A DNA stretch of 64,000 nt, from NCBI GenBank assembly GCA_041908795.1, contig JAYRER010000048.1:18413-82412 (forward strand), written 5' to 3'. The DNA comes from Minisyncoccota bacterium (GTDB lineage Bacteria > Patescibacteriota > Minisyncoccia > Phycocordibacterales > UBA12088). The notes under the pieces were generated by a model, which saw only the letters and a list, made by a program, of their open reading frames with translations, had not been told where the DNA came from and did not search any database. Positions within the stretch are counted from its first letter, which is position 1. Each line of letters starts with the position of its first letter. This document shows positions 12,585 to 43,742 of this stretch, piece after piece. The translations under genes were made by a program, and so were the position numbers.

Positions 12585-13298
12585 CTACCGAAATATCTTG
12601 TCACGAACATCGCGTGCGCGCCAGTAGAGCGGTGTGAGCATGAGGCGGAACTTCCAAAATGGAATATTGCGCGAAATGATGACCCGCGGTATGGCGTAGG
12701 GGTCGAGCGTCTCCCCGTCGTAGAGCACGCCGACGGGGCCGGTGGCATACTCGTAGTATTTCGCGGCAAACTTTTTCACCCGTGCGTCGAAGTTACCCTT
12801 GGGGTACGCAAGACCCACAACCTTCTTCTGTAAGTTGTCCTCTATGAGTTGTTTTGAGTGTGAGAGCTCGTAGTCAAGCTCACTGTCGGAGAGTGTGGTG
12901 AGGAGCGGGTGCGTGTGGGTGTGGCTCTCGATTGAAACGAGTCCGCTCGACTCAAGCTCTCGCATCTGCTCCCATGAGAGAAATCGAAATGTGAACCCCT
13001 CGGCATTCGTGTGGTCCTTCCCCACAAAATCAGTGGCAACAAAGATGGTGGCGTGTATGTTGTGCTTTTTTAAGATTGGGAGTGCGTTGGTGAGATTGTC
13101 CTCAAGACCGTCGTCGAATGAAAATGTAACATATACACAGTTCGCAGGGCTTACCCCCATTCGTGACAAGTTTTTGACTTGGCTTACCTGCGTAGAGCTA
13201 TTTTTGATCCTGTCATACTGCTGATTAAGTACATAGGGCTGTACAGCATGTACGTATGCCAAGTCAGACACCGAATGGTATGCGTAATTGAGTAGCAT
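12585..13298 (-). CDS. Polysaccharide deacetylase (CE4/NodB family), copy 1
   Basis: TFSFDDG...ALPILKKHNIHATIF...HTHTHP (NodB motifs). Confidence 0.8.
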   Translation of the reverse strand: MLLNYAYHSVSDLAYVHAVQPYVLNQQYDRIKNSSTQVSQVKNLSRMGVSPANCVYVTFSFDDGLEDNLTNALPILKKHNIHATIFVATDFVGKDHTNAEGFTFRFLSWEQMRELESSGLVSIESHTHTHPLLTTLSDSELDYELSHSKQLIEDNLQKKVVGLAYPKGNFDARVKKFAAKYYEYATGPVGVLYDGETLDPYAIPRVIISRNIPFWKFRLMLTPLYWRARDVRDKIFR

Positions 13299-14266
13299 TA
13301 CGCTGTGTTATGTTGTTTTTTGTAGTAGTCCCGCATCCACTCAACCGTGCGTCGCACACCCTCTTCAAGCGATACCGAATTTGTATGTCGTAAATCTCGC
13401 ACAGATTTACTTACATCCACATGTTTGTTTTTTGTGGTAAGTATCTCACTTTCAGCATAAGAGATGAGAGAAACATCTGCATGGGTATACTTCCACACAA
13501 GAGTAGCCAAATCTTCAATAGAATGTTCTTCGCTTCCTCCGATATTGTAGACTTCCCCCGCCTTAAAGTTGTCCACGATATTGCTAAGAGTTCGTACACT
13601 GTCTTCAAGGAACGTGGAAGTGCGAGTATGTCCGCGATACACAGTAACCGGTAACCCATGGAGGGCGTGGTATGTAAACTTGCAATTAACACTTCTGTAG
13701 GGATGGTACCACTCACCCGGTCCATACGTATTGAAAAGACGCACTACTACAGTTTCCGTTCCATGTTGTATTCTTGAGTTACGTACCTGTTGTTCATTTA
13801 CCCACTTTGAAAGAGCGTAATCATTGAGTTGCTTGACCTCTGTGGTATCCATTACATCCTCAACCATGGTGTCGGGAAAATCCCCATACACCTCTGAAGA
13901 AGAAAAATGTATGAGTTTAAAACGGAGCTTCTCCTGTAACCGGAGCATATGTTTTGTTCCAATAGCGTTGGAGCGCCAGACTTGCTCATAAAAATCCTCT
14001 CCATTCCACCTCCCAAACTCCGCCGCCGCGTGGTACACAAAGTCAAAGGTGCCATGCTTCTCGAACACCCGCTCAATTTGACGATAGTCGCCAACATCAC
14101 AACGTGAGTAAGAAGCCTCTGTTTTTGACATTTCATGTTCCCACCCAACCTCTCCTGGAGCGTGTTCCAAATCAACCCCAAACACGCTATGGCCTTTCTC
14201 TGTAAGCATAGCAACAAGCCATGTACCCACCACCCCACGAGATCCAGTCACAAGTATTCTCGACAT
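13298..14266 (-). CDS. NAD-dependent epimerase/dehydratase (SDR family)
   Basis: ILVTGSRGVVG Rossmann motif. YxxxK present. Confidence 0.8.
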   Translation of the reverse strand: MSRILVTGSRGVVGTWLVAMLTEKGHSVFGVDLEHAPGEVGWEHEMSKTEASYSRCDVGDYRQIERVFEKHGTFDFVYHAAAEFGRWNGEDFYEQVWRSNAIGTKHMLRLQEKLRFKLIHFSSSEVYGDFPDTMVEDVMDTTEVKQLNDYALSKWVNEQQVRNSRIQHGTETVVVRLFNTYGPGEWYHPYRSVNCKFTYHALHGLPVTVYRGHTRTSTFLEDSVRTLSNIVDNFKAGEVYNIGGSEEHSIEDLATLVWKYTHADVSLISYAESEILTTKNKHVDVSKSVRDLRHTNSVSLEEGVRRTVEWMRDYYKKQHNTA

Positions 14267-14294
14267 ATAAGGAATATTACATCAACATTTTCAT

Positions 14295-15107
14295 TTATTC
14301 CACTCGCTTTGCCAAAAAAACAAGGTGCCTTCCTAAAGGCAGTGCTGTTCTGCCAAGCGCTTGTTCGAAGGAAATAATGAGCCACCGCAGAGGTGCAAGG
14401 TGTAAAGGATACTTCAATAATGTATCAAAATACGGTCCGTCAACGTAGGAGCAGTACCTCACTTTTTTGACATCAAACCCATGCTGTTCAAGACTGGCTC
14501 GCAAACTTGTTCTACTAAATTCCCGTACATGTGCATCACCGTGACGTGCGAGCTCTTCAATAGTGAAATGCTCAAGTGAGTGGAACGACCGATACCCCAG
14601 CGTCCGCATGAGTCGACCCCACCACGTGCCATCGGCATTGTAGTTTGGTGTGGTGAGAAGCAAGTAGCCCCCGGGCTTGATGAGGCGACGCAATTCTTTC
14701 AGCATGGCGTCTTTATCGTGCACATGCTCTATCACCTCGGAGCTGATAGCGACATCAAATGAAGCATCATCTGCTGGTATTCTTTCGCCAACCGATGCAG
14801 TGAACGTTATGTGCTCCGCTTCACAAAGTGCTTTTTGCTTGTTTGCTTCGGTAATGAAGCTCTCAGCGATATCTACACCGAGCCCCTTATGAATGGTGTC
14901 GCGCGCACGAAGAAGTTGGCGCCCTGTTGCACAACCCACATCGATAACCGCCTCATGTGGCACGGTCCGAAGCAATCGATCGATTGCCTCCTCTCGCACA
15001 TAGTTGGTGAGACCCACGCGGTGTGTAGGTTGAAACTTGTACCCTCCGTAGAGGTACGCTTTCTCTTTTCCAAACTGCTCCCACATTAGTTTGTAGCTAC
15101 TACTCAT
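14295..15107 (-). CDS. Class I SAM-dependent methyltransferase, copy 1
   Basis: VIDVGCATG motif I, EVIEHV, PGGYLLLTTPN. Confidence 0.8.
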   Translation of the reverse strand: MSSSYKLMWEQFGKEKAYLYGGYKFQPTHRVGLTNYVREEAIDRLLRTVPHEAVIDVGCATGRQLLRARDTIHKGLGVDIAESFITEANKQKALCEAEHITFTASVGERIPADDASFDVAISSEVIEHVHDKDAMLKELRRLIKPGGYLLLTTPNYNADGTWWGRLMRTLGYRSFHSLEHFTIEELARHGDAHVREFSRTSLRASLEQHGFDVKKVRYCSYVDGPYFDTLLKYPLHLAPLRWLIISFEQALGRTALPLGRHLVFLAKRVE

Positions 15108-16245: not shown

Positions 16246-16630
16246 TCTTTGCAGAATTACATTAGAATCTCCACACCAAAAGTCTCCATCTCAAACGCGG
16301 CGACAACCAGACGCCTTGTGAGTTCCAGTTCTATCGTACGGCACCAGCTGAAACAGGTGCCTCGCCTTTCTCCTCTCATACGTGAGAATAGTATACCTCT
16401 AAGCCGGAAGCGCCACATATGAGACAAGGAGTATGACTTTACATTTTATTGTATCTTTTTGTACACGTCACTTTCTTCAGCTGATGGTGCACCGCCGTAG
16501 AGCGTTTCAGCGATGAGTTCTGGTTTGGTCGCGAGGCACATGCGAGTATGGTATCACACAGCACGTGCAATTCGTATTTCAAAATCATGGAAATGTGTCA
16601 GTTTACATGAGTGGAAATCAAGCAAATCAG

Positions 16631-17824
16631 CTAATTTCCATGAGTTTGTATGAATTTGAGGATGTTGTGCGCTCGTTTTTCCCACGTGTACTTTTCCTTT
16701 ACCTCGCGGCGGGCTTTCTCTGCGCGGGTGGCGGCCGCCTCCTGGTCGGCAAGCACGGCGTGTACGCCGCGCGCCATGTCCTCCGCGTCGCCGGGTCGCA
16801 CAAACACCGCGAGCGATTCGTCGAGTATTTCCCGCACACTCGGAAGGTCGGTCGTCACCATGGGGATCCCGCTCGCCATGTACTCAAAGAGCTTGATGGG
16901 GCTCATGAAGAGGCGGTAGTGTTCGAGGTCGGGGTACGCCATCACCAGCACGTCACAGACGAGGAAGTACTGCGGGAACTCCTTCTGGGGAATGTGCCCC
17001 ACCACCGTCACATCCTCCCGTGCGATACCCGCTGCGGCGCAGAGCTCATTGATGTACGGCTTTTCATGCTCCTCGACACCCGCCAAAAAGAGGAGCGCGT
17101 GCGGGTGCTTTTTCTTCACCGCCGGGAAGCCCTCGATGAGCTCCTCGACCCCCTTGCCCTTGCCCATGGTGGTGATTTTCCCGAGGTGGCCCACGATGAG
17201 CCGATCTTCGGGAAGACCGAGCGCCACGCGGAGCTCCGACTTTGTAAGCGGACTCTCAAACCGCTCGGGCGAAACGGCGTCGGGCGCCACGAGTACCTTT
17301 TCGGGGAGAATGTTCCACGTACGTACATAAAAGTCCTTGAGTCCTTTGGTTATCGCCACACAGTGGTGCACATTACGCAGTATTGCTCGAATATGAATGA
17401 GTGGCCGTTTAGTATGGATTTCGTATACGAGGCGGTTTGTACATAAGCTCAAGAAGAATCCCGTAACCTCATCACGCGAATAAATGACATCGGGTTTCAA
17501 AACGAGTGCACGAACAGTCGCTACAAGAGCAAACGTTAGCAATTGCAACAAGTGCCCCGTTTTCCCAAGCCAATGCCACTCAAGTGACGGACATCGCACT
17601 ACTCGAAAGGAGTGGGTCACTCCGTAGAACGCACACACATCTTCTTTCAAGCGATACTTGCTGTCGGCGGTAACTAATGTCACCTCCACCTTCTCTCCAT
17701 GCATAGTTGCATGAGAAAACGCCTCGCACATTTTAACAATTTGGACGCTATATGCCTTGTGTGAAGGTATACGCCCGTTTGAGACATACACAAGATGCAT
17801 ACTTCTAGTTCTTAGGAGAGACAA
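16631..17824 (-). CDS. Glycosyltransferase family 4 (GT-B)
   Basis: EYMASGIPMVTTDLP. GT4 C-terminal domain. Alternative start at 17800. Confidence 0.8.
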   Translation of the reverse strand: MSLLRTRSMHLVYVSNGRIPSHKAYSVQIVKMCEAFSHATMHGEKVEVTLVTADSKYRLKEDVCAFYGVTHSFRVVRCPSLEWHWLGKTGHLLQLLTFALVATVRALVLKPDVIYSRDEVTGFFLSLCTNRLVYEIHTKRPLIHIRAILRNVHHCVAITKGLKDFYVRTWNILPEKVLVAPDAVSPERFESPLTKSELRVALGLPEDRLIVGHLGKITTMGKGKGVEELIEGFPAVKKKHPHALLFLAGVEEHEKPYINELCAAAGIAREDVTVVGHIPQKEFPQYFLVCDVLVMAYPDLEHYRLFMSPIKLFEYMASGIPMVTTDLPSVREILDESLAVFVRPGDAEDMARGVHAVLADQEAAATRAEKARREVKEKYTWEKRAHNILKFIQTHGN

Positions 17825-19469
17825 TAAAACGATTGTTGATTACCAAAAAATCAATCGCTCCGGTTGTACACGAACGCAGCGCATCGTCCACCGATGACAC
17901 TATGGGCTCCTCGTGCATATTAAAGCTGGTGTTCACCACACAGGGGATACCTGTGTGTCGGTGGTAGGCGGCAATGACATCGTAGTACGCTGGATTGACT
18001 TCCCTTCGTACAAGCTGTGGACGCGCGGTACCGTCCACATGGGTGACAGCCGCAATCTTAGCCCTCCACTCCGGCCGCACGGAATATGTCACCGTCATAA
18101 ACTCCGCCGCATGGCGGGACGGCTCCACATTCTCAAATAAGCTATCAGCATGCTCGTAGAGGACACTCGGTGCAAAGGGCATAAACTCACTCCTGCGTAA
18201 TTTTTTGTTGAGCGAGTCGTTTATAGTATGGTCGGTTGGACGAGCAAGTATGCTTCGATGTCCTAGTGCCCTTGGGCCAAATTCCATCCTGCCGTCAAAC
18301 CACCCCACCACCTTCCCCTCTTGAAGAAGTACCCCAACGCGTTCGGCCGTATCTTTTTCTTCTTGATACAGAATTTTATTTGCCTCGAGGTATGCTCGAA
18401 CGGCTTCATCTGACGCGTGAGTTCCAAAATACACATGCGGTAGGCGAGACGAGTCCTTCTTTTTCTCGCATTTCACGTGGTGATAGTACAGTGCACTCCC
18501 AAGCACCAGCCCCTCATCACCCATCGCCGGCTCGACAAATAATTGCTCTGGCTGACAACGTTCAACAATGCGCTGGTTCATTTTCACATTTGCAAAAACT
18601 CCTCCCGCGACGGCAACTTTGCGTACGCCCGTACGGTCCATGAGTGCACTCACGTGACTCACCACTCGCTCTTCCAGGAGGTGTTGGGCATACGACGCCA
18701 CCTCTTCTCGCGTGAAGCGTGCACATAATGCAGCCACCCACTTCTGAAGCTCTTTACTGGTACCACGATGAAAGTGGAGCCCGTCTTCGCTTACGGTAAC
18801 AGGATCAGGTGCACTATGTGGCGCAACAATTTCTGGGTCTGCATACGCCGCAAGGCCCACCACCTTTCCCTCATGACGATTTGGTGTAAAGCCAAGACCC
18901 TTGGTGACATGTTCGTAAAACGCTCCCAGTGACTCGCCCGTATCCCCTTGCACTATCTTCTTCCATGACACCCCCTCCACAACCCATGCGGTATGCGAGA
19001 GTGAATCACCAAGCCCATCCAATGTTACGACGAGCGCCTTGTCAAACCCGGAATGGAAGTAAGCGCTGGCGGCGTGCGCGGTATGATGATCCAGAAAAAA
19101 GAACTCGGGCTTCTTAGGCAGGGAATGAAACAAACGGCGTATATCTCTCTCACGCCGAAACACTTGGTAAATATTCAGCATGTTCCCAAGTGTAATTTTA
19201 GGTCGATAGGAGATGAAACCATTTATCCCACCTAACTCAAACTTGCGCTTGAGGTACCCAGCGGCATCAAGATGGGAAACCGTCACCACGTCAATATCTG
19301 AAAGCGAGAGGCCACTATCGGTGAGTACAAATTCTAATGCCTGTGTGGGAAAACCCCAGTAAAATTTTTTACGGTTAAGACGCTCCTCGGAAACACACGA
19401 CTCTACCACGCCGTTTTTGAGCACGGCGGCGGAAGCGTTATGTCCATCATGGATCGAGAGTATGTTCAT
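17805..19469 (-). CDS. Carbamoyltransferase (NodU/CmcH/HypF-like family)
   Basis: MNILSIHDGHNASAA...HHTAHAASAYFHSGF...FMPFAPS (carbamoyltransferase N- and C-terminal domains). Start trimmed to the internal ATG at 19469. Confidence 0.8.
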   Translation of the reverse strand: MNILSIHDGHNASAAVLKNGVVESCVSEERLNRKKFYWGFPTQALEFVLTDSGLSLSDIDVVTVSHLDAAGYLKRKFELGGINGFISYRPKITLGNMLNIYQVFRRERDIRRLFHSLPKKPEFFFLDHHTAHAASAYFHSGFDKALVVTLDGLGDSLSHTAWVVEGVSWKKIVQGDTGESLGAFYEHVTKGLGFTPNRHEGKVVGLAAYADPEIVAPHSAPDPVTVSEDGLHFHRGTSKELQKWVAALCARFTREEVASYAQHLLEERVVSHVSALMDRTGVRKVAVAGGVFANVKMNQRIVERCQPEQLFVEPAMGDEGLVLGSALYYHHVKCEKKKDSSRLPHVYFGTHASDEAVRAYLEANKILYQEEKDTAERVGVLLQEGKVVGWFDGRMEFGPRALGHRSILARPTDHTINDSLNKKLRRSEFMPFAPSVLYEHADSLFENVEPSRHAAEFMTVTYSVRPEWRAKIAAVTHVDGTARPQLVRREVNPAYYDVIAAYHRHTGIPCVVNTSFNMHEEPIVSSVDDALRSCTTGAIDFLVINNRFIVSPKN

Positions 19470-19580
19470 AGCGAACGCGTCATGTGAGCAGTGTACCGTT
19501 TTTCCGAACAACACGCACCACCTGCACGCTGTGGGCTTTGTGCGAGGGGAGCTTGGTATTGGCAATGTAGAGGAGTCGGG

Positions 19581-19892
19581 TCATGAGTTTTGCTCGTCTA
19601 GAAGGCGCGCGGTGTGCAGGATTCGAGAAACGCGAAGGTCTGTATCTACCAAATCGTAGTAGATACAGTATCTTGGCGCGAACACAAACGAACGGAGACC
19701 GGGGCGGACATCGTCGCGCAACCTCCCTATCTCCCCGTGACAGGCGAGTATCGTGCAGCACCGTTCAAGGTTACGTACAAACTTTTCTGCGGCGCGCACG
19801 TCGTGGTCAGACAGGTAGCGCAGTATTTCCTCCACATCACGGAGTGCGGGTTCAGAAAACTCATAGCCGCCATCCCTAGTGCGTTTGGTCAT
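19581..19892 (-). CDS. parE: Type II toxin, ParE/RelE superfamily
   Basis: 103 aa small basic protein, translationally coupled (4-nt overlap) to the upstream antitoxin. ParE-like CxYYxxxxD core. Confidence 0.65.
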   Translation of the reverse strand: MTKRTRDGGYEFSEPALRDVEEILRYLSDHDVRAAEKFVRNLERCCTILACHGEIGRLRDDVRPGLRSFVFAPRYCIYYDLVDTDLRVSRILHTARLLDEQNS

Positions 19893-20188
19893 GGAGTGAC
19901 CTTGTTCCTTTTGTGCTTTTTAAGTATTTCTCGTGCCCGACGGAACACCGTATCACTCGAAACAGTCTTACCTTGCTCTATTGCGGCGTCACCCACTGCA
20001 ATCGCGGTTTGAAGCGCAATAAGCTCTTGCTGACGAAACAACTCCTCCATCTCAAGTTTGCGCAGTGACTCACGGACCACCTCGCTCGCAGAGATGTAGC
20101 GGCCGGATTTTACCTGGTCGCGAATAAACTTCTCCTGTTCCTTGGTAAGTGAAATGTTAGCCATACACCAATGGTACCGGTATAACAA
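19889..20188 (-). CDS. parD: Type II antitoxin, ParD family (COG3609-like)
   Basis: MANISLTKEQEKFIRDQVKSGRYISASEVVRESLRKLE matches the ParD/CC2985 antitoxin N-terminus. Likely start at 20164. Confidence 0.65.
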   Translation of the reverse strand: MLYRYHWCMANISLTKEQEKFIRDQVKSGRYISASEVVRESLRKLEMEELFRQQELIALQTAIAVGDAAIEQGKTVSSDTVFRRAREILKKHKRNKVTP

Positions 20189-20194
20189 AAATTG

Positions 20195-21382
20195 TCAATT
20201 TTTGTTATACGCCTCGTTTTGCCCGGATAGCATTTCCATCACCCCATTGTACTCCGAGAGACGCCCTGCGACGTACATGCGGGCTCGCGCAACACGCTCG
20301 GCAATTGTGGGGTGAGCGGTGCGGATGCGGTCGAGCTCTCGGTCAAGTGCTTCAATGCCGTTCTCTTCACCCCACACGAAGGCACGCTCACCCTTTTCCC
20401 CGGCACTCTCGAGGAGCCCCTCCGCACGGCTCACGATACAAGGTGTCCCCACGTACATGGCCTCGAGTGGCACCATGCCGAGCGACTCACTGCGCGAGAA
20501 AAGCAGGAAGACATCGGCGTCAACGTAGTACCGCCAGAGCTCATGGTGAGGCACGGTGCCCGCAAAACGTACGTGGTCGGCGACACCGAGCGTGACTGCG
20601 AGCACTTCGAGACGGTCGCGGAGAATGCCGTCGCCCGCTATGACGAGTGTCGCCTCTTTGAGGGCGAGAGCGGCAAACGCCGTGAGCAAGCGGTCGAACC
20701 CTTTTTCAGGTTCAAGCCGGCCGACCGAGAGGAGCATGAGGTGCCCGTCGGGAACGGCAAGCGCGGCCCGCACCGAGCCCTTGTGCTCGCGGGCGGTCGT
20801 GAGGTCCGCGGAGTCGCGCGAGAGCGTGTCGGGGAAAAAGCGATGCGTGCGGCTCGCCGGTATGCCCACGTGTTGCGCGTAGAGCGCCGCCGCGCGGCTG
20901 TTGACGAAGCACACATCAACGCGCGGCACGGCGATGCGCTCGATCTGCGCCTCCACGAAAAGCTTGAGTCGTGCGAGGGGGCGCGTCTTGAGAAGCGTTG
21001 CGGGCAGGTTCGCCACAAACAGCACGACGCGCGCACCCGTCTCTTTGCGCACTCGTGCGGCCGCGGGCACCAAGCTCATGTCGTAGGTCACAACCGCGTC
21101 CGGCACGTACCCCCGCGCACGCAAGAGTGCGGGTAAACGAAGCATCATGACAAGTGCATAGAACGGGCGAAGGTGTCTGAAGCGAGCACGCAGGTGCACC
21201 GTTTCGAAGTGGTCGTCCACCCTGAGGTAGTAGTGCTCTGGCCCGAAGGACACGAGGAACATGTCGCACTCGGCAAGGCGTATGCCATCGCGCTCGAACT
21301 TGGTCCGCATCTCGGGCACGTTGGTTTTGGCGAGGTTGCGCCAATCGAAACTGAGGCAAACGAGTCGAGGTCGGGTGGTCAT
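20195..21382 (-). CDS. Glycosyltransferase family 4 (GT-B)
   Basis: LEAMYVGTPCIVSRAEG. GT4 domain. Start trimmed to ATG (MTTRPRLV). Confidence 0.8.
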   Translation of the reverse strand: MTTRPRLVCLSFDWRNLAKTNVPEMRTKFERDGIRLAECDMFLVSFGPEHYYLRVDDHFETVHLRARFRHLRPFYALVMMLRLPALLRARGYVPDAVVTYDMSLVPAAARVRKETGARVVLFVANLPATLLKTRPLARLKLFVEAQIERIAVPRVDVCFVNSRAAALYAQHVGIPASRTHRFFPDTLSRDSADLTTAREHKGSVRAALAVPDGHLMLLSVGRLEPEKGFDRLLTAFAALALKEATLVIAGDGILRDRLEVLAVTLGVADHVRFAGTVPHHELWRYYVDADVFLLFSRSESLGMVPLEAMYVGTPCIVSRAEGLLESAGEKGERAFVWGEENGIEALDRELDRIRTAHPTIAERVARARMYVAGRLSEYNGVMEMLSGQNEAYNKN

Positions 21383-21478
21383 GTGTGTGCGCGAAAGAGG
21401 GCACAGCCCTCGTACCACGGCTCTCCCGGGTGAGGTTGCCGGATGCCTCTGCGGTATGCGCAGTATACCCCGTGTGCG

Positions 21479-22459
21479 CTACGTGCGCCGCGCTTCAGCT
21501 GCCGGCGTCGCAAACCGCTTTCGTGCCTCCGCTTTGGGGCCGTAGAGGTTGTGAGTGTACCACGCCACCGCCCGCTCGATGCCGTCTTCCACCAAGACCT
21601 CGGGTTTGTACCCGAAGTGGTGCTTGGCGCGCGAGATGTCGGCGATGTACTTCACCACCTCCCCTGTGCGGTTATCGTGTATCTCGATATCGTTGTCGGT
21701 GCCGAGTTGACGCTTCATGAACTCCGCCACTTCGACGAGCGATTTGCCCTGCCCGTAGGCGATGTTGAACATCCCGCCGGTACCCGCTTCGAAGTGCTCG
21801 ATGCCAAGCAAAATGCCGCGCACGGCATCGCTGATGTAGGTGAAGTCGAGGAGCTTGTCGCGCCCGAAAATCTTAAGCGGCTCACCCGCGAGGCACTGCC
21901 GGATGAAGAGGGGCACGACGCGGTCACTCTCATCATAGAGCCCGTAGACGTTGCTGAAGCGGTAGATAATCGCCTTAAGGCCGTAGCATTTCTGGTAACT
22001 GTGGACGAGCGCTTCCCCGCTCATCTTGCTTGCGGTGTAGGGGCTCGGGCAGTTCCAGATGCGCGTGTCCTCTTCGGCGTGGGTCACCTTGCCCGTGTTG
22101 CCATAGACCTCACGACTTGAGGCAAACATGAGGCGTGGCATGTTCCTGCGGCGCACGTACTCGAGCACGTTGAAGACCGATAGAAAGTTGTCGCGCGCGA
22201 GTGTGGGGTCAATGACGAGGTTGTGCACTCGGGCATTCGCCGCGAGGTGGATGACGAGGTCAGTGCCACCATCGGGGAGCTTTTCGAGCACACCCTCAAG
22301 GTCACGCAGGTCTTGGCGGATGGTCTTTGCTTCAATGACCGGATCCCACTTGTTTTCGCGCCAGTCGACACCGGTCACCTCAAAACCCTGCGCCAACAAC
22401 TTCTGGCACAAGTAGGTACCAATGGTACCACTGCTTCCCGTAACAAGGACCCTTCGCAT
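21479..22459 (-). CDS. NAD-dependent epimerase/dehydratase (UDP-sugar 4-epimerase-like)
   Basis: MRRVLVTGSSGTIGTYL...YTASKMSGE (GxxGxxG, YxxxK). Start trimmed to 22459. Confidence 0.85.
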   Translation of the reverse strand: MRRVLVTGSSGTIGTYLCQKLLAQGFEVTGVDWRENKWDPVIEAKTIRQDLRDLEGVLEKLPDGGTDLVIHLAANARVHNLVIDPTLARDNFLSVFNVLEYVRRRNMPRLMFASSREVYGNTGKVTHAEEDTRIWNCPSPYTASKMSGEALVHSYQKCYGLKAIIYRFSNVYGLYDESDRVVPLFIRQCLAGEPLKIFGRDKLLDFTYISDAVRGILLGIEHFEAGTGGMFNIAYGQGKSLVEVAEFMKRQLGTDNDIEIHDNRTGEVVKYIADISRAKHHFGYKPEVLVEDGIERAVAWYTHNLYGPKAEARKRFATPAAEARRT

Positions 22460-22476
22460 AGCGTACCCAGAGTGTA

Positions 22477-26093: not shown

Positions 26094-26254
26094 AGTAGCA
26101 AATCAGCTACATCCACGCACTTGAACACACAAACCCTTTGTGGCATAGCGCTTGTGTTGCCTCCGCATCCGTGCCACTAGGATGTACAAAATCTGCCAAG
26201 CACATGAGGGCGTAGCAGATCTTTTTTGACGATGCAACGTGTACCGCAAGATGG

Positions 26255-30702: not shown

Positions 30703-30770
30703 AGGGTACCACACCTTGCGACTTCCTGTGAGTTGCGCAGTACCTTGCCCAGCACGTACAATGGCGAAAT

Positions 30771-33455: not shown

Positions 33456-33479
33456 TTGATAAGCGTTCCGCGTAGCGTG

Positions 33480-35336: not shown

Positions 35337-36113
35337 GTGGAAATAGTGGTGATGTACCCGGCGTACTCGCAAGGAGTCATCCAAGACGACTTTTTGCTCA
35401 AGTTGCTACGTCATTTTAAAGAACCGAGCACAGAACCGAACACGTATCACATCGTACCCATCCTTAATGGGATGACAGAGGAGGATTACGAACGTTCTTT
35501 GAGCCAGTACAAGCAGACTGACTCAACTTTCGGAATCAAGGTGCACCCCTTGTATGCCGGAAAAACGACGGGTCTTTTTGGTACCTTGCTCTACGGATAT
35601 GGAGCGGTCGCAAAAACATACCCGAACGCAACAACTGTCCGAATGGATAACGCTGAACATTCCATTGCTGCCATCCCTGAATTGGCGACACCCGCAAGGG
35701 AAACGGGCGGAATGGTCGTTGGAGATCTCTGTTTCGACGATACGACCCTCCTGCCCAATACACCGGACTGGTACGCTCATGAAATAGTGTGGCCGGGCAT
35801 CGCTCATATGGTGAGCCCCACATCGCAACTACCCCTTTCGTGTGCGCATGGATTCCAAGCATTTGGCCCTCGAGTCCTTTCAAAAATCTTTGTTCGACTC
35901 AACCAAATGATTGAGTACATGTCCCTACGAGGCCCTCAACCAAAGTGGGGACTCGACTTTGGGATGGTGTGCTCCGCACTATTGGCGAACGTACCGGTTA
36001 ACATCTATCCGGTAAGGGCCGAATCACTTCGCAATAGGGATCTTGGGAAAATTGCCGACCAGCTTTCTGCTGCGGCGACGTGGGTCAGCGCCTACGCACA
36101 CATCAGGAAATAA
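35337..36113 (+). CDS. Hypothetical protein (possible divergent GT-A-like)
   Basis: GTG start with a strong SD (tgAAGGAGcgcgacaGTG). 258 aa with no recognisable motifs. Confidence 0.5.
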   Translation: MEIVVMYPAYSQGVIQDDFLLKLLRHFKEPSTEPNTYHIVPILNGMTEEDYERSLSQYKQTDSTFGIKVHPLYAGKTTGLFGTLLYGYGAVAKTYPNATTVRMDNAEHSIAAIPELATPARETGGMVVGDLCFDDTTLLPNTPDWYAHEIVWPGIAHMVSPTSQLPLSCAHGFQAFGPRVLSKIFVRLNQMIEYMSLRGPQPKWGLDFGMVCSALLANVPVNIYPVRAESLRNRDLGKIADQLSAAATWVSAYAHIRK

Positions 36114-37270: not shown

Positions 37271-37275
37271 GCTCG

Positions 37276-38652
37276 CTATCCTACTCTAAAATGCGCCGCC
37301 ACGCGAACAAGTAGCGTTTTGATAGTCCGAAAAATTATCGCAAGGTCGAGCAACATGCTTCTATTCTTCACGTAGTAAAGATCATAGGCGAGTCGCACCT
37401 TACTCTCCTCAATAGATTGGGGGCTTATATGACCCGACAAGTACTGCTGATGGGTTTGTGCCCAGCCGGTGATTCCCGGTGGCACGGCATACCGTGCACG
37501 ATAAAAGGGAACGTGCTCAAGCAAGCGAACACCCAAACTCTCGATATCATTACGCGGACCGATTAGTGACATATTCCCCCAAAGAATGTTCCAAAGTTGT
37601 GGTAGCTCGTCCAGACTTGTAAAACGTAGGAAGCGTCCTACACGCGTCACCTTGTTTGAACCTTCCCCTTGCCAGTATCCTTTGTCGTTTTCAGACATTG
37701 TTCTTAATTTGTAGACCTTTAATACCTTCCCGTTCTCACCAAGCCTACGTTGCGATATAAATACCGACCCTCCATCGTCCAGTTTAATCATAATCATGAC
37801 TAGCGGGAGACACAATATGAAGAGCACCCCAAGCGGAACAGAGAGCATGATATCCGCACAACGCTTCGCCACTCGATACAGTCCGTCACTCGAAGAGGTG
37901 AGGTGTTGGAGAAACCACTCAAAACGAAGCGCGGAGAGCGGTACGCGATCAAACAATTCCTCGTATGCGGACTCGAAATCTATAAACGTGAGCCGCCGAG
38001 TACCAAACGAGTACTCCACAAGTGCTGCAATGAGATTGGCAAGCTTAGGGGTATACGGACTCGCTACAATAATGCTAATATCCTGATTCTTTACAACCTC
38101 GAGCGTTCGAGCAACGAAGTCCGGTGTCCTTTCAACCAAAGCGTAATCAACAATACGCACAAACTCATACTCGTACCGATAGTTGCCGTTTACCTCCCGA
38201 ACAAGCTCTTCTGCCTCCTGCCCCTCAGCAAGCAGGAGTGCCTTATACCTTTTCCGTGGGCGAAAGTGTGGGAAGAGTGTGAGACGCCACGCAACCATGA
38301 GAAGCGAGGAGACTCCGAGGTAAATGAGGAGATTGGTTTTGGGAGCAATGGGAAAAATTGGCAACAAGAAAAAAAGTGCCGCGGCACACAGCACATTTAT
38401 TGTTTGTGCGGTGAAAATGCGTCCAGGGAGACGTCGTTGGAGAATGACCGTATGCTTATCGTACAATCCTGCGATGAAGTATACTGCGAGCCAAACAGCG
38501 GAGAGAAAGGTGAATGCCGGAAGGTGATCCTCCAGTCGCACACGAGTGGGAAGCTCAAAATATCGCACAAACAGTGTGATATAAAGCGCCACAAGAAAAA
38601 ACGTAAGGTCTCCCAGCACAAGTATGAATAGTTCTCTCCGTCGTACATGCAT
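37276..38652 (-). CDS. Undecaprenyl-phosphate sugar phosphotransferase (bacterial sugar transferase, WbaP/WcaJ-like priming enzyme)
   Basis: N-terminal TM segments plus the C-terminal Bac_transf domain (KLRTM...[20 protein letters not shown]). Confidence 0.85.
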
Positions 38653-38694
38653 AGTGGAAATAGGTACTTGCTAGTGTATAGTATCGTTGTGCAT

Positions 38695-39885
38695 ATGGAA
38701 CCAACAAATACTCCTTCTGTCAAGAATCTGTGTATCGTGATCGCGATTACTAAGTCCAATTGGGGGGGTGCCCAACGCTATGTGCACGACCTCGCTGTTG
38801 CACTTCACGCGCAAGGCCACCATGTTCATGTTGTACTTGGTGGCACGGGGGAGCTTGCACAAAAACTCCGAGACGGAGGAATCGACGTATCCTCCGTTCC
38901 AACACTTACTCGCGACATTACCCTTACACAAGAGATCCGATCCTTTATTCATATCTATAAGGTGCTACGTACGATACGTCCTGACGTGCTACACCTTAAC
39001 AGCAGTAAAGCGGGAGGGCTCGGCGCACTTGCGGGAAGAGTGCTTGGGGTACCACGCATCATATTCACGGCACACGGGTGGGCATTTAACGAGCCGAGAT
39101 CCCGGTTCGTGTGTATATTGCTACGAACTCTGTACTGGATCACCATACTACTAGCTCACCGGACTATTGCCGTGTCGGCGGCCACCGCGCGTGACATCAT
39201 ACACCTGCCGTTCATGCGCTCACGTATCGAAGTGATACATGTTGGATGTACGTCTACAGCCATCCTTCCACGCAATGATGCACGCAGAGCTCTTGAGCAA
39301 ATGCATCCCTCGCTTGCGAGCATTTTTTCAAGTAACGCAAAAGTATTTGTAACTATCGCTGAGCTACACCCCATCAAGGGACACCATGTAATGCTTGAGG
39401 CTTTTTCACGCACACAGATGCACACTCCCTCAATGTACTGGGTGCTTATGGGGGATGGTGAACTTCGAGATGAACTACAGACGACCATTAAAAAATGGAA
39501 CCTGAATGAAAAAGTGTTGCTTCTGGGTCACGTGCGTGATGCGAGTCGCTACCTAAACGCATTCGACTACTTTGGACTTCCCTCACTTTCAGAGGGTCTT
39601 GCATACGTTCTCCTTGAGGCGGGGCTTGCAAATCTTCCTGTGATTGCCACGTGTGTGGGCGGCATACCAGAAGTTATAACCGATGGGAAAACCGGTCTCC
39701 TGGTACCCTCAAAAGATGCGAGTGCGCTTGAGAAGGCTCTCACCACACTTATAGCCGACACGCATCTGGCGTATTCGCTTGGCAGTGCTCTCAATACCCA
39801 AGTGCGAACCAACCACTCTCTAGCACAAATGGTTGCGCGCATCGTGGATGTCTACCACAATCAGCAATTCTTCAAAGAGGCTTAA
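38695..39885 (+). CDS. Glycosyltransferase family 4 (GT-B)
   Basis: LLEAGLANLPVIATCVGGIPEV. Start trimmed to 38695 (MEPTN). Confidence 0.8.
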   Translation: MEPTNTPSVKNLCIVIAITKSNWGGAQRYVHDLAVALHAQGHHVHVVLGGTGELAQKLRDGGIDVSSVPTLTRDITLTQEIRSFIHIYKVLRTIRPDVLHLNSSKAGGLGALAGRVLGVPRIIFTAHGWAFNEPRSRFVCILLRTLYWITILLAHRTIAVSAATARDIIHLPFMRSRIEVIHVGCTSTAILPRNDARRALEQMHPSLASIFSSNAKVFVTIAELHPIKGHHVMLEAFSRTQMHTPSMYWVLMGDGELRDELQTTIKKWNLNEKVLLLGHVRDASRYLNAFDYFGLPSLSEGLAYVLLEAGLANLPVIATCVGGIPEVITDGKTGLLVPSKDASALEKALTTLIADTHLAYSLGSALNTQVRTNHSLAQMVARIVDVYHNQQFFKEA

Positions 39886-40748
39886 GGATGTAGGATCTCA
39901 GTCCCGTACACACCTTCCAGAAGATCCGTGTCCTTGCCTGAGTCTCGGAGCAGTTCTATGTTCTTTTTTTCAAGCGCCCGTAGGAGTGTGATTGAATTTT
40001 TTCCATCGATATGTTTCTCAAAATAGTTTGCAAGTGCCGCAAAATCTTTGATGAAACAATGCCCACCTGCGCCCCGACCCAACACCGCACTTTTGTGTCC
40101 ACTCATATCCACAGGGTGCATGTGACTACTGCCTATTCGGGTGTCGGCTGACATTGCTTGTGCGAGCACTTCGTAGTCAGCTCCCACATTCTGACAGAGG
40201 TCGTACAGGAGGTTCATAAAAACCACCTTGGTAAAAAGGAAGCAGTTGCCACCGTACTTGATGAGTTCCGCGGTTATCGCGTCAGTTACCAGTTCGTAAG
40301 GTGCCCGGGGAAGTACCGCAAGTACTTTTCGAGCAGCGTCATGGTACACGTCTGTATCCTCTGGAATGCCCAGTATGTTTCTTTCCGGATTCGCTGCGTC
40401 GTAGGCAGCTGACTTCTCACGTAAAAACTCAGGGGAGTGGAGAATGAGTAGTGTGGGGAAATCTTGCTGCAGTCTGCTTGTCGTACCCGGCAGTATCGTT
40501 GACTTAATAACCGCAATCGCGTTAGGTCCTACCTTGGTGAGGGCATCACGCAATTGACGATCATTGAATCCCTCTGGTGTTGTTGGAGTAGGAACAGCCA
40601 CGAAGACGATTTCGCATTTTGATACCGCCTCCCCATTTTGTGCGTACGGCTCCTCAAGCGCATACCGTATCACCTGATACCCGCGCCGTTCAAAATCATC
40701 GGCGTAATTCTTCCCAATAAACCCTTGGCCTATGCATCCAATCTTCAT
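39882..40748 (-). CDS. Truncated UDP-glucose/UDP-ManNAc 6-dehydrogenase-like protein (N-terminal NAD and central domains only), paralog A
   Basis: KIGCIGQGFIG, IKSTILPGTT, SPEFLREKSA, catalytic-Cys motif GRGAGGHCFIKD. Only 288 aa, so it lacks the roughly 100-aa C-terminal UDP-binding domain. Confidence 0.7.
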   Translation of the reverse strand: MKIGCIGQGFIGKNYADDFERRGYQVIRYALEEPYAQNGEAVSKCEIVFVAVPTPTTPEGFNDRQLRDALTKVGPNAIAVIKSTILPGTTSRLQQDFPTLLILHSPEFLREKSAAYDAANPERNILGIPEDTDVYHDAARKVLAVLPRAPYELVTDAITAELIKYGGNCFLFTKVVFMNLLYDLCQNVGADYEVLAQAMSADTRIGSSHMHPVDMSGHKSAVLGRGAGGHCFIKDFAALANYFEKHIDGKNSITLLRALEKKNIELLRDSGKDTDLLEGVYGTEILHP

Positions 40749-40750
40749 AC

Positions 40751-41674
40751 CTATTTGGTTGCCTTCGGCTTTTTCTTCACTCTTTGCACTTTTCCCTCAA
40801 GACCGGCCCCTTTTCCGTACACACCTTCCAAAAGATCAATATCTTTTTCGGTCATCCTCAGCAAGTGGGTGTTCTTTCGTTCCATTGAGTAGAACACTTC
40901 CGCACCACGAGAATCCCCCGTTGCTTGCTCATACCATCGTGCAAACGCGGCCATATCCTTGATGTAGCAAGGTCCTCCTGCTCCACGACCGGGTACCGCG
41001 CCCGGGTGTCCGCTTGTGTGTACCGGATTGTTGTAGTAGTGCGCTCGAGATGAGAGATAAGGATCTGCATCAAGTGCACGCTTAAGCTCATCCCATGTAG
41101 CTCCAGTGGCTTGAGCCGCATCATACATTAGATTCGTAAATAATATTCGCATATACCCATGAAGATTATGTGCGTACTTGATGAGTTCCGCTTCATGCGA
41201 CGTACATACTTGACTGTGTACACTGGGAGGAAAATGCGACAGTACGGTTTGTGCGTGTTTTTTTGTACTTACCCCGGGAACAAACCCCACGATATTCATG
41301 ATGGGGTATGCCGCATCCCATCCCGCAGTCTTCGCAAGCAAGAACTCGGGAGAAAACATGACGCGAACATTAGGATACTGACTTTGCAGCACTTCCGTGG
41401 TTCCAGGAAGCAGGGTCGACTTGATTACTGCTATTTTTCCCTTTCCGACAAGAGCGATCGATTCGCGTACGATAGAATCATCGAATCCCTTAGGGGTGGT
41501 GGGGGTCGGTACCGCAATAAGAACTATGTCGCAAAGCGCTATTCTTGACTTGTTGTCGCGGTACGCATCTTCAAGCGAGTAGCGCACGGTCTCATAGCCA
41601 CGTTTTTCAAAATCATCGGCATAGCTCCTCCCAACAAACCCTTGGCCGATAAATCCTATAAGAGGTTGTGCCAT
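40751..41674 (-). CDS. Truncated UDP-sugar 6-dehydrogenase-like protein, paralog B (tandem duplicate)
   Basis: IGFIGQGFVG, IKSTLLPGTT, SPEFLLAKTA, GRGAGGPCYIKD. 307 aa, colinear with paralog A. Confidence 0.7.
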   Translation of the reverse strand: MAQPLIGFIGQGFVGRSYADDFEKRGYETVRYSLEDAYRDNKSRIALCDIVLIAVPTPTTPKGFDDSIVRESIALVGKGKIAVIKSTLLPGTTEVLQSQYPNVRVMFSPEFLLAKTAGWDAAYPIMNIVGFVPGVSTKKHAQTVLSHFPPSVHSQVCTSHEAELIKYAHNLHGYMRILFTNLMYDAAQATGATWDELKRALDADPYLSSRAHYYNNPVHTSGHPGAVPGRGAGGPCYIKDMAAFARWYEQATGDSRGAEVFYSMERKNTHLLRMTEKDIDLLEGVYGKGAGLEGKVQRVKKKPKATK

Positions 41675-41979
41675 AAAAAATATCGATTATTAGCTACTCA
41701 AAAAGATTAAATCCGGTGCGCTGGGTATTCTACCCCAAAAATCGCAAAATTGCTCGCGCGAGCTTGTCGGGGTCGTAACGAGTGAGTGTCCGACGCGGAG
41801 GGTCACCCCTCTTTGGCTTCTAGAGCTCTGCTGAATGGAGGGTGAAGTGTCCCTATGGTAACGATATGGGGAAGTTTTTCTCCGCAGGTCGCTGATTGTT
41901 TCGACGCATAACGAACCACCCTAGCACAGTCACATTCGGCTGCTACTGGAGCGGTGCGAGGTGCGTTATGATGTGACAG

Positions 41980-42987
41980 ATGAATGCTCGCACCATTATC
42001 CCAACCCTTATGCACGCAACAGGGTTGCCGCACATAATGAGACTGCGTCAACGAAACCGACTGGTTGTCGTGCTCTACCACGGCGTCACAGATGATATTG
42101 GTACGGGAATTTTCAACTACCGCGGAAAGTTTGTTTCAACACATACGTTTAATAATCATCTTGACTACTTTACACGTCACCACACCGTACTTGGACTCGA
42201 TGAAGCCGTACGTCTACTGTTTTCAGAATCTCCATTGCCTTCCTACCCTCTCTGTATCACATTTGATGATGGGTACAGGAATTTTTTTACCCACGCAGCT
42301 CCGCTTCTCAAGCAGTACCGAATGGCGGCAACCATGTTCCTCACCACCTCATTTATCGACACAAAGAAGCCCTTGTGGGTGGACCGCCTCGAGTACGCCG
42401 CGGGCCATGGAATCCACCCGACACTCCCTGACCGTACCGCGCGCGCAAAATTGGATGCGCAGATACGCTCAAGACTCAAGCAACTCCCGGACCTTGAGCG
42501 CGAATCCACGCTTTCTACATTTGAGGAGAAGGTCGCTGCAAAACTTGTCGATTTTGATGAGTCAAGGAGCGTATACGCACCCCTCTCGTGGAGTGAGGTG
42601 GAAACGTTGGAAAAAGAGGGTATGATGTTTGGTGCCCACAGTGTGCACCACCCTATTCTGACTCGCCTTACACCCGAGGCGCTGCGCGTAGAAGTGGGCG
42701 AATCAAGGGAATGTGTCACGAGGCGCTGCAAGAAATCGTCTTCGGTATTTGCCTATCCGAACGGACAATCGGGTGATTATGATGAGGTAGTCACGCGCGA
42801 AGTGCGCGCGTGCGGATTCACCGCCGCACTGACTACGATTCCCGGCAACAACAAAAAGACCACCAGCCCCTATGCGCTCAAACGCTACACGATGAGCACA
42901 CGGGACGTGGGGGCCTCATTTATTCAAAACGTTACTGGCACTAACACAGCACTTTCATGTCTACTACAACAACTCGGGCGGAGGTGA
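41980..42987 (+). CDS. Polysaccharide deacetylase (CE4), copy 4
   Basis: CITFDDGYRNFFTHAAPLLKQY...HSVHHP. Confidence 0.75.
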   Translation: MNARTIIPTLMHATGLPHIMRLRQRNRLVVVLYHGVTDDIGTGIFNYRGKFVSTHTFNNHLDYFTRHHTVLGLDEAVRLLFSESPLPSYPLCITFDDGYRNFFTHAAPLLKQYRMAATMFLTTSFIDTKKPLWVDRLEYAAGHGIHPTLPDRTARAKLDAQIRSRLKQLPDLERESTLSTFEEKVAAKLVDFDESRSVYAPLSWSEVETLEKEGMMFGAHSVHHPILTRLTPEALRVEVGESRECVTRRCKKSSSVFAYPNGQSGDYDEVVTREVRACGFTAALTTIPGNNKKTTSPYALKRYTMSTRDVGASFIQNVTGTNTALSCLLQQLGRR

Positions 42988-43742
42988 GTTTTTTCAATGA
43001 GCGCAGTCGCTCGTACCTTGATGAGTACGGAAAAGAGACTCCCGAGGGTTTTTCATTCCGTATGCGTCGCGAAGGGGTACTACGGGTACTGCCAGACGGA
43101 GAGGGTAAGCGCGTGCTTGATATTGCCGGCGGACCCGGTGTGATGATAGCCGGTTTGCGTAAAAAAGGATACGAGGTTGACTGTGTGGATGCGGCTCCTG
43201 AAATGGTTGCGCTTGCGGCCCAAGAGGCGCGTGGCGACGCTAAGGTTCACACACACGTCGAAGACGTGCTCGCTCTTTCATACAAAAATGGCACGTTTGA
43301 CGCGCTGACTGCCATGGGTCTTGTTGAGTACCTTGATGATCAGGACAGGGCGATGCGAGAAATGGCACGGGTACTCAAACCTGGAGGTGTTGCGATTATC
43401 ACGTTCCCCAATCGTTACTCTCTATGGCGTTTCTGGGCAGCAACACTGCGGACCGTTTTCTACCCACTGCGTACGCTGCACAAAAAACTGACCGGGAAGC
43501 CGGTGTACCCTATACGTCATCGAGAGTACACACCGGAACAGGCACGAGCGTACATGCGCATACACGGACTTGTGCCTGCGCAGACGATTTACTACAACTA
43601 CAAGCTCATGCCATTTCCTCTCGATAAATTTTTTCCACGATTGACCGTGATTCAGTCGAGCCTCTGTGAAGGTAGAGGGGGAGTATTCTCTCGTTTCTTC
43701 GCCACCGCTTTTATTGTGGAGGGGGTGAAGCGGGCTCTGTAG
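42957..43742 (+). CDS. Class I SAM-dependent methyltransferase, copy 4
   Basis: VLDIAGGPG, LVEYLDD, PGGVAIITFPN. Overlaps PDA4 by 31 nt. Confidence 0.75.
   Translation: MSTTTTRAEVSFFNERSRSYLDEYGKETPEGFSFRMRREGVLRVLPDGEGKRVLDIAGGPGVMIAGLRKKGYEVDCVDAAPEMVALAAQEARGDAKVHTHVEDVLALSYKNGTFDALTAMGLVEYLDDQDRAMREMARVLKPGGVAIITFPNRYSLWRFWAATLRTVFYPLRTLHKKLTGKPVYPIRHREYTPEQARAYMRIHGLVPAQTIYYNYKLMPFPLDKFFPRLTVIQSSLCEGRGGVFSRFFATAFIVEGVKRAL

Follow-up and report, generated by a model that had tools for sequence, protein, structure and literature searches.

Why would one bacterium keep, within a single glycan locus, four polysaccharide deacetylases of carbohydrate esterase family 4 (CE4) and four class I S-adenosylmethionine (SAM) methyltransferases, most of them side by side? 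The question is raised by a 64,000-nucleotide stretch of a Minisyncoccota bacterium genome (GCA_041908795.1, contig JAYRER010000048.1, positions 18,413 to 82,412), here called the window, in which the listed open reading frames (ORFs) and Pfam/NCBIfam scans delimit a surface-glycan biosynthesis locus of about 36 kb (~10.3-45.9 kb). Comparison with other genomes indicates that the four modules are anciently diverged, separate lineages gathered in one locus and not local duplicates, and that two of them recur as conserved cassettes. We give about an even chance to the reading that each module sets a CE4 de-N-acetylase beside a soluble methyltransferase, deacetylation being followed by methyltransferase action on the same residue.

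All eight ORFs, with their Pfam domains, lie where the earlier note on this DNA had placed them. The deacetylases PDA1 (12585-13298, minus strand; 237 amino acids, no N-terminal extension), PDA2 (27076-27855, minus; 259), PDA3 (31671-32510, plus; 279) and PDA4 (41980-42987, plus; 335) match PF01522 with E values of 9.2e-27, 1e-25, 4.9e-18 and 6.5e-23, and their scores of 66-94 bits against a gathering cutoff of 23.1 place them in CE4. The value for PDA2 was scored on a 298-residue long form; the 259-residue form is identical to a database protein (P0001). The methyltransferases MT1 (14295-15107, minus; 270 amino acids), MT2 (27852-28610, minus; 252), MT3 (30771-31670, plus; 299) and MT4 (42957-43742, plus; 261) fall in class I with 77.5, 52.1, 57.4 and 74.0 bits, the cutoffs of the Methyltransf_11/23/25 models being 21-27. 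MT1 matches Methyltransf_23 (1.3e-21) and Methyltransf_11 (1.5e-19), and the other three match Methyltransf_11 at 1.1e-13, 2.4e-15 and 1.5e-20, respectively. MT3 alone among the four has a C-terminal Trm112p-like zinc ribbon (7.5e-9), and PDA4 alone has a helical insertion of ~75 residues, apparent in both alignment and model. No class I methyltransferase or CE4 gene beyond these four and four was seen in the glycan locus.

The tight junctions that had been described are there in three pairs, which are directly adjacent, and pair 1 is split by an epimerase gene. In pair 3 the ATG of PDA3 directly abuts the TAA of MT3, and in pair 4 the two genes share 31 nt, or GTGA if MT4 really starts with the GTG at 42984. 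Pair 2 belongs to a run in which every gene overlaps the next (ATGA, ATGA, 13 nt): WecB, a non-hydrolysing UDP-GlcNAc 2-epimerase (28607-29689, minus; TIGR00236, 269 bits against a cutoff of 210), MT2, PDA2 and the soluble family 2 glycosyltransferase (GT2) GT2b (26255-27088, minus; PF00535, 1.8e-15), which overlaps the PDA2 stop by 13 nt. The run around pair 1 reads, in transcription order, a family 4 glycosyltransferase (GT4) whose stop is overlapped by the MT1 start over 8 nt, MT1, 28 nt, a NAD-dependent sugar epimerase/dehydratase (13298-14266, minus; Pfam Epimerase, 7e-38) whose stop shares TAATG with the start of PDA1, PDA1, 2 nt, and the soluble GT2a (11611-12582, minus; PF00535, 7.5e-37). 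Although the coordinates of the pairs stood, the gene order given in the earlier note had ignored strand: the methyltransferase precedes the CE4 gene in pairs 1-3 and follows it in pair 4.

Pair 3 is conserved well beyond this genome. In loci fetched for comparison, where genes are simple ORF calls, a close relative (GCA_964383505.1, locus L001; PDA2 77% identical) keeps pairs 2, 3 and 4, with the pair 3 methyltransferase 85% and deacetylase 72% identical, and a more distant locus, L087, retains the MT3-PDA3 order at 55% and 50% identity. An MT3 alignment, scanned against metagenomes, retrieved 15 loci; MT3 orthologues 51-57% identical occur in L087 and L096-L107. A PDA3 orthologue (48-51%) lies immediately downstream on the same strand in 10 of the 10 metagenome loci that have both an MT3 orthologue and enough downstream sequence, several of which are near-identical samples of the same organisms, so that the ten represent about six distinct lineages. 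The single more distant MT3 relative that has room downstream (L108, 30% identical) is followed by no PDA3 homologue. The GC content of the pair 3 loci ranges from 40 to 69%, and the cassette is flanked by recA, efp, an M48 peptidase and DUF2207 in L100, by aroA, a transglutaminase-like gene and hypF in L104, by an alpha/beta-hydrolase in L096, and by a Dam methylase and a cupin in L087.

Pair 4 behaves similarly within Parcubacteria-type genomes. Orthologues of PDA4 are numerous at 40-48% identity; those that carry a name come from Ca. Kaiserbacteria, Paceibacterota, Adlerbacteria, Parcubacteria and Minisyncoccia. In each of the contexts inspected (L001; L111, Ca. Kaiserbacteria CP066682.1; L112/L113; L114) a PDA4 orthologue (44-59% identical) is immediately followed by an MT4 orthologue (46-76% overall, 46-59% when L001 is set aside), and in all but L001 the overlap was measured at 8-50 nt. 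In L111, L112/L113 and L114 the cassette is bordered by a short dehydrogenase-like gene together with a divergent GT4 and, at its other end, by a convergent GT4; the window, too, has a GT4 convergent on MT4 (43711-44919, minus; Glycos_transf_1, 7.9e-34). A metagenome scan with a two-sequence PDA4 alignment gave no match, the patterns being too specific. Taken together, the conserved arrangements make functional coupling of the CE4 and methyltransferase genes in pairs 3 and 4 likely.

For pairs 1 and 2 the comparison gives a different picture. MT1 and PDA1 have no orthologue among the loci compared, and MT2 has only close orthologues (91% in L001). Each of the PDA2 orthologues in L003-L006 (37-42%) has both a methyltransferase and a GT2 no more than a few genes away; in L003, L004 and L006 that GT2 is 38-44% identical to GT2b (174-182 bits) and is separated from the CE4 gene by one methyltransferase gene, plus a small membrane-protein gene in L006. 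On co-occurrence, which the earlier note had raised, the outcome is divided: pairs 3 and 4 are conserved with congruent divergence of their two members, but the methyltransferase of pair 2 is swapped elsewhere. We also observed that genes of phosphonate biosynthesis (a cytidylyltransferase-PEP mutase fusion, phosphonopyruvate decarboxylase and Fe-ADH) stand immediately upstream of these PDA2 orthologues (L003, 3526-7933; L004, 445-2408; L006, 1637-6017), and that an asparagine synthase gene follows the orthologue in L003, L006 and L005. The gene content hints at phosphonate-decorated glycans, and at another role for the neighbouring methyltransferase, in those loci.

How unusual is the pairing? 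Among 145 immediate neighbours of related CE4 genes, drawn from 80 GTDB loci of many phyla, about 4 are class I methyltransferases, with 17 GT4 and 6 GT2. On these counts, pairing with methyltransferases is rejected as a general property of this CE4 clade. Because so few neighbours are class I methyltransferases, however, three adjacent pairs out of four in one locus is far above background; simple arithmetic from the survey counts (a rate of ~0.075 per CE4 gene) gives a binomial probability of ~0.002. Two further loci in the survey hold methyltransferase-CE4 fusion proteins. Pfam domains give the fusion in L008 (Omnitrophota) as zinc ribbon-MT23-CE4-GT4 and that in L051 (Gemmatimonadetes) as GT2-NodS family domain-CE4, the NodS domain scoring 49.5 bits with PF05401 (cutoff 24). 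Four database proteins (P0134, P0138, P0148 and P0151) are likewise fusions, with the methyltransferase ahead of the CE4 domain and no hydrophobic segment. The MT3 family itself comprises 43 clusters at E<=1e-30, none of them fused. A database query with concatenated MT3 and PDA3, for which 8000 candidates were scored, recovered fusions and missed the exact proteins, and serves as a lead only.

The CE4 domain is also joined to other partners, namely GT2-CE4 in L072, formyltransferase-CE4 in L032, GT4-CE4-GT4 in L023 and GT4-CE4 in L054 (Pfam). As a side observation, proteins at L032 4903-6747 and L023 4882-7866, together with P0007, P0018 and P0035, carry CE4 with a formyltransferase, between two GT4s, or with an AAA-type kinase domain. 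Such fusions may represent further cytoplasmic partners that use the freed amine.

What would the deacetylases do, and where? The motifs YH.., TFDDG, HxxxH and AYPxG and an Arg are invariant across the four window CE4s, and an alignment of 16 sequences, the window CE4s among them, shows no variation at D86, D87, H146, H150 and H32 (PDA2 numbering); all four proteins have the catalytic Asp, the Asp-His-His metal triad and the catalytic His of CE4. Among 53 relatives of PDA4, D96/D97, H220 and H224 are invariant and H34 is conserved in at least 90%. The N-terminal His and the Asp/metal-ligand pattern are typical of the permuted PgaB/IcaB type. With an AlphaFold model of PDA4 (pLDDT 95.8), Foldseek returned PplD as the best solved fold (E 7e-16, TM 0.88), followed by PgaB, IcaB and BpsB, and a profile search of the PDB ranks the same proteins at the top (E 2e-34 to 5e-28). 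These top folds are all de-N-acetylases of GlcNAc-containing glycans; O-esterases score far below them in both searches, and an ArnD structure ranks 30 (E 0.02, TM 0.34). NCBIfam equivalog models are missed, the best scores being 87 bits against 322 for PgaB and 64 against 248 for IcaB.

To locate the proteins we looked for 19-residue segments with a Kyte-Doolittle value of at least 1.6, a measure of hydrophobicity and not a dedicated signal-peptide predictor. No such helix-like segment occurs in any deacetylase or methyltransferase of the four modules (N-terminal maxima 0.65-0.93), nor in GT2a or GT2b, while the same test detects helices in the GT-C, EamA and phosphoglycosyl transferase proteins of the locus. 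Judged by hydrophobicity, the deacetylases lack the signal peptide, lipoprotein signal or transmembrane anchor of the extracytoplasmic PgaB/IcaB/PplD type. A membrane anchor was considered for PDA2-type proteins, in the form of their N-terminal hydrophobic stretch, and rejected; the stretch is below threshold, and in the L008 fusion it is internal, between the methyltransferase and CE4 domains. These results suggest a probably cytoplasmic location for the CE4 clade of the window, in which it would differ from the characterised PgaB, IcaB and PplD; related CE4s are fused to cytoplasmic enzymes (GT4, GT2, formyltransferase, methyltransferase). SAM is available in the cytoplasm. Since all eight proteins are without helix-like segments, consistent with one cytoplasmic compartment, sequential action of CE4 and methyltransferase is feasible.

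The methyltransferases are less easily assigned. None of MT1-4 matches the NodS family (PF05401, Pfam, E<=0.01), and their NCBIfam matches are generic (UbiG, UbiE, DVU1556). Solved relatives in the PDB include the O-methyltransferases UbiG, D-glucose O-methyltransferase and MitM, and for MT2 and MT4 the PDB and NCBIfam neighbours are of both N- and O-specific kinds. With no match to NodS or to a curated sugar methyltransferase, and with relatives of both kinds, any methyl acceptor named for them is tentative.

In the mechanism that we propose, a neighbouring GT2 or GT4 would place an N-acetylhexosamine (HexNAc) on a lipid-linked or nucleotide-linked intermediate; WecB beside MT2 and PDA2 suggests ManNAc or GlcNAc as the residue. 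A metal-dependent CE4 of the PplD/PgaB/IcaB fold type would then remove the N-acetyl group on the cytoplasmic side, and the partner methyltransferase would modify the same residue, the most economical target being the freed amine, as in the step from NodB to NodS. We infer the substrate, the order of the reactions and the choice between N- and O-methylation. By analogy, N-deacetylation followed by N-methylation is plausible; that the freed amine is the methyl acceptor is a tentative assignment, to which we give somewhat less than an even chance. The earlier note had advanced deacetylation followed by methylation. Its sequential part is feasible in the one compartment that the proteins appear to share, and the fusions and the conservation of pairs 3 and 4 support the pairing, but no window methyltransferase matches NodS.

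Several observations weigh against this mechanism. Methyltransferases seldom stand next to CE4 genes of the wider clade (the ~4 in 145 above), and in PDA4-type and PDA1-like relatives at 32-33% identity methyltransferases lie three genes off, not adjacent. The nearest solved folds (PplD, PgaB and IcaB) are extracytoplasmic enzymes, PplD having a transmembrane helix and an extracellular domain (PMC8807736). No curated sugar-methyltransferase model in NCBIfam is matched by MT1-4, and the solved relatives of these proteins mix N- and O-methyltransferases. MT2 is unrelated to the methyltransferases beside the PDA2 orthologues in L003-L006 (0-30 bits); because GT2b is orthologous to the GT2s of L003, L004 and L006, the co-inherited core is CE4 plus GT2, with some methyltransferase nearby, and the adjoining phosphonate genes in L003, L004 and L006 mean that those methyltransferases may serve another substrate. 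Finally, the MT3-PDA3 cassette stands outside glycan loci elsewhere and may therefore act on something other than what this locus makes.

Do the pairs reflect function at all, or descent from one pair? Chance co-location in a locus that is merely rich in CE4 and methyltransferase genes would be compatible with the separated genes of pair 1, with the non-orthologous methyltransferases beside PDA2 in other genomes and with the methyltransferases that are near but not adjacent in relatives at ~32% identity. Shuffling the 34 genes within the locus yields three or more directly adjacent pairs at no better than P=0.03, and at P=0.0085 when each of the four pairs is further required to fall within two genes. 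Chance is nevertheless hard to reconcile with a pair 3 that is adjacent in 10/10 informative loci, as well as in L087 and L001, in unrelated contexts, with a pair 4 that is adjacent and overlapping in all contexts examined (L001, L111, L112/L113, L114), with at least six independent methyltransferase-CE4 fusion proteins and with a background methyltransferase-neighbour rate of ~3%. Chance co-location is already refuted for pairs 3 and 4, and as an account of the whole locus we find it improbable. The earlier note had instead read the unit as duplicated as a pair, an ancestral CE4 and methyltransferase copied within the locus to yield one module per residue of a repeat unit, or a diversifying family. 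The same two superfamilies do occur four times within 31 kb, and PDA1 and PDA2 share an identical ALPILKK stretch. Yet the paralogues are only 22-39% identical: 27-39% among the CE4s (44-92 bits) and 22-29% among the methyltransferases over longer alignments, with up to 43% over one 42-residue stretch (30-58 bits). The nearest CE4 pair is 1-2 (92 bits), whereas the nearest methyltransferase pair is 1-4 (58 bits), which is the most distant pair among the CE4s. In bootstrapped neighbour-joining trees, which are distance-based, PDA2-4 and MT2-4 each cluster with orthologues from other genomes (91-100% bootstrap; for the PDA1 and MT1 types no outside orthologues were available); nodes between types receive 19-61%, so that the relations among the four types are not settled by the tree. 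Within types 3 and 4 the deacetylase and methyltransferase trees are largely congruent. Gene order is reversed in pair 4, the Trm112 domain is found in MT3 alone and the 75-residue insertion in PDA4 alone, and PDA2 orthologues elsewhere adjoin unrelated methyltransferases. The shared blocks that had been taken as a sign of duplication (TFDDG...ALPILKK in the deacetylases, VIEH/..PN in the methyltransferases) are family-wide motifs in the alignment consensus and do not mark a recent common origin. The idea of one module per residue is weakened by the MT3-PDA3 cassettes outside glycan loci. The alignments and trees thus do not bear out co-duplication; a recent duplication of the pair within the locus is contradicted by these comparisons, and we consider descent from one duplicated pair scarcely credible.

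If the genes of a module do act on the same glycan, do they act on one nitrogen? The CE4 and methyltransferase could instead be co-expressed while the methyltransferase modifies a hydroxyl or a uronic-acid carboxylate, or the CE4 could remove an O-acetyl group. That the genes are neighbours would in this case be a matter of common regulation or of a tailoring complex and not of consecutive chemistry. The generic UbiG, UbiE and DVU1556 matches, the O-methyltransferases among the PDB relatives and the missing NodS match suit this alternative, as do the short NDP-sugar dehydrogenase-like genes conserved beside the PDA4-MT4 cassette and the membership of acetylxylan esterases in CE4. It fares less well with the deacetylases, whose nearest neighbours by fold and by profile are de-N-acetylases throughout (PplD, PgaB, IcaB, BpsB) with O-esterases far lower, and with the L051 fusion, which sets a NodS-family N-methyltransferase domain directly before CE4; a bare two-gene cassette without other glycan genes also fits consecutive action on one substrate better. 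We hold this alternative, and the account of adjacency that comes with it, to be possible but rather unlikely. A further alternative takes its model from the Arn system: a GT2 would make a polyprenyl-phosphate-HexNAc, CE4 would deacylate it, EamA or GtrA would flip it, and a GT-C (PMT_2) protein would transfer the sugar outside. The parts seem to be present, with a GT2 directly downstream of both PDA1 and PDA2, GT-C genes at 10294-11709 and 22477-24585 (the latter fused to GtrA), an EamA transporter gene after PDA3 and a small SMR-like membrane protein between CE4 and methyltransferase in L005 and L006. However, GT2a and GT2b have no membrane segments and score 34 bits or nothing against an ArnC cutoff of 529, their best models being PglI-, TuaG- or SunS-like; no ArnD model is matched, and the ArnD structure is distant from the PDA4 model. 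We rejected the Arn-like polyprenyl-phosphate amino-sugar route on these grounds (soluble GT2s that are not ArnC- or GtrB-like, no ArnD match, a distant ArnD fold) and regard it as highly improbable.

Sequential action on one residue can be extended into a bolder proposal, which we think doubtful: type 3 (methyltransferase with Trm112 ribbon, then CE4) and type 4 (CE4, then methyltransferase) would be two self-contained, hitherto undescribed two-enzyme systems that make N-methyl-hexosamine from N-acetyl-hexosamine in Patescibacteria and other uncultured bacteria. Since type 3 is often away from glycan loci, next to genes such as recA, efp and hypF, it may act on a universal envelope precursor and not on a strain-specific polysaccharide; a lipid- or nucleotide-linked GlcNAc or a peptidoglycan intermediate may be that precursor.

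The remainder of the locus is that of a surface-glycan pathway. Named homologues of PDA4 and PDA2 (Kaiserbacteria, Paceibacterota, Adlerbacteria, Minisyncoccia) point indirectly to a Patescibacteria/Parcubacteria source. The locus is bounded on the left by recG and a VTT-domain (DedA-like) gene and on the right, on the minus strand, by rplB-rplW-rplD-rplC, tuf and fusA. It has a single polyprenyl glycosylphosphotransferase gene (37276-38652), seven GT4 and the two soluble GT2 genes, the two GT-C/PMT_2 genes, and, besides WecB, several epimerases/dehydratases, one nucleotidyltransferase and two short NDP-sugar dehydrogenase-like genes. The last two form a tandem of 288 and 307 amino acids (39882-41674, minus) with N-terminal and central domains but without the C-terminal domain; the copy at 40751-41674 (minus), with the UDPG_MGDP_dh N-terminal and central domains only, is divergent from PDA4, and a single version of 292-296 amino acids lies near the PDA4-MT4 cassette in L001, L111, L112 and L114. 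A NodU/CmcH-type carbamoyltransferase (17805-19565, minus; Carbam_trans_N and C domains, with a NodU model score of 128 bits that is far under the cutoff) implies O-carbamoylation of the glycan. A 258-residue ORF in the middle of the locus (35337-36113, plus) has no Pfam/NCBIfam match and no hydrophobic segment.

The locus also bears marks of its assembly. A parDE-like toxin-antitoxin pair within it, ParE (PF05016; 19581-19892, minus) and a 99-residue ParD/CopG-like ORF (19889-20188, minus), sits exactly at a step in GC content from ~0.52 to ~0.60, and the equivalent site in L001 has an AbiEii toxin gene. The block 20000-32500, which includes pairs 2 and 3, has a GC content of 0.59-0.61, compared with ~0.50 on either side; the homologous stretch in L001 is mostly 0.55-0.58. 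This mosaic suggests that stretches of differing history were brought together to form the locus. At the right-hand border, the S10 ribosomal protein operon (45944-47337, minus; rpsJ?-rplC-rplD-rplW-rplB) ends after rplB and the glycan locus comes next; the ORF that follows rplB (45944-46231), which lacks a Pfam match, does not encode S19, and rpsS, rplV and rpsC are absent from the whole window. Outside the locus, a 586-residue protein (4028-5788, minus) combines YkuD L,D-transpeptidase and Peptidase_S11 D-Ala-D-Ala carboxypeptidase domains.

What does the locus add? The logic of deacetylating a sugar and then re-functionalising the amine is already established for Nod factors, and occurs also in lipid A, mycothiol and GPI anchors; there is no new principle here. 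New are two conserved, uncharacterised cassette types, as recognised by gene content and order (MT(Trm112)-CE4 and CE4-MT), the occurrence of the PDA4-type cassette in Parcubacteria-type genomes, a PgaB-like CE4 clade that is probably cytoplasmic, and the fact that a single locus unites four such modules. Patescibacteria (CPR) live attached to host cells, and to our knowledge their cell-surface chemistry is almost unknown. A conserved deacetylase-methyltransferase cassette would predict cationic or N-methylated amino sugars on that surface, and would offer two small, directly testable enzyme pairs (about 280+300 and 335+260 amino acids). The labels 'polysaccharide deacetylase family protein' and 'class I SAM-dependent methyltransferase' mask at least two conserved two-gene units.

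How, then, do the modules compare with systems that have been described? In profile and fold the deacetylases are nearest to PplD, PgaB, IcaB and BpsB, with which they share the permuted CE4 motifs and metal ligands. Those enzymes are extracytoplasmic, in contrast to the window CE4s, which have no helix-like segment, stand beside cytoplasmic enzymes (to which their relatives are fused) and miss all NCBIfam equivalog cutoffs. HfsH of the Caulobacter and Hirschia holdfast is, like them, a CE4 encoded inside a glycan locus, and modifies a GlcNAc-containing polysaccharide (PMC8449245). The window CE4s differ from it in scoring 22-24 bits with model NF050820 (cutoff 400). HfsH reportedly has no signal peptide and acts before export (Wan et al. 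2013), and we know of no partner methyltransferase described for it.

The CE4 and GT2 core of pair 2 resembles HexS/HexD/HexF of Clostridioides difficile, an operon for a glycosyltransferase, a CE4 deacetylase and a flippase that makes an amino-sugar glycolipid; the site of action of HexD is left unresolved in that work (PMC10128005). HexS, however, is an MGDG-synthase-type transferase, and the system has no methyltransferase. ArnC/ArnD/ArnT likewise encode a GT2, a CE4-fold deacylase and a GT-C together, but the soluble GT2s of the window, at 34 bits against 529 for ArnC, and the distant ArnD fold set the two apart; the nearest NCBIfam models of GT2a are PglI/TuaG-like.

The closest parallel is the Nod factor pathway, in which NodBC yield an N-deacetylated chitooligosaccharide that NodS then methylates (PMC11681206). 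The differences are clear: the window CE4s are of the permuted PgaB/IcaB/PplD type (22-27 bits with TIGR04243, cutoff 240), the methyltransferases are outside PF05401, which is matched only in the L051 fusion, GT2a scores 40 bits against a NodC cutoff of 550, and no NodA-like domain was found by Pfam among the locus genes scanned. Here, moreover, is a surface-glycan locus with a phosphoglycosyl transferase and many GT4s, and not a lipochitooligosaccharide pathway. Because every curated cutoff is missed, the window proteins are not members of the NodB, NodS, PgaB, IcaB, HfsH or ArnD families. The likeness is one of chemistry and of parts: in Nod factor synthesis a GT2 product is de-N-acetylated by a cytoplasmic CE4 and its freed amine methylated by a class I SAM methyltransferase (PMC11681206), as is proposed here, a NodU-like carbamoyltransferase is encoded in the window, and the related L051 fusion joins a GT2, a NodS-family domain and a CE4. 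That the earlier note recognised no described pathway unit here was too strong a verdict, as deacetylation by NodB and subsequent N-methylation of the freed amine by NodS is precisely that chemistry (PMC11681206).

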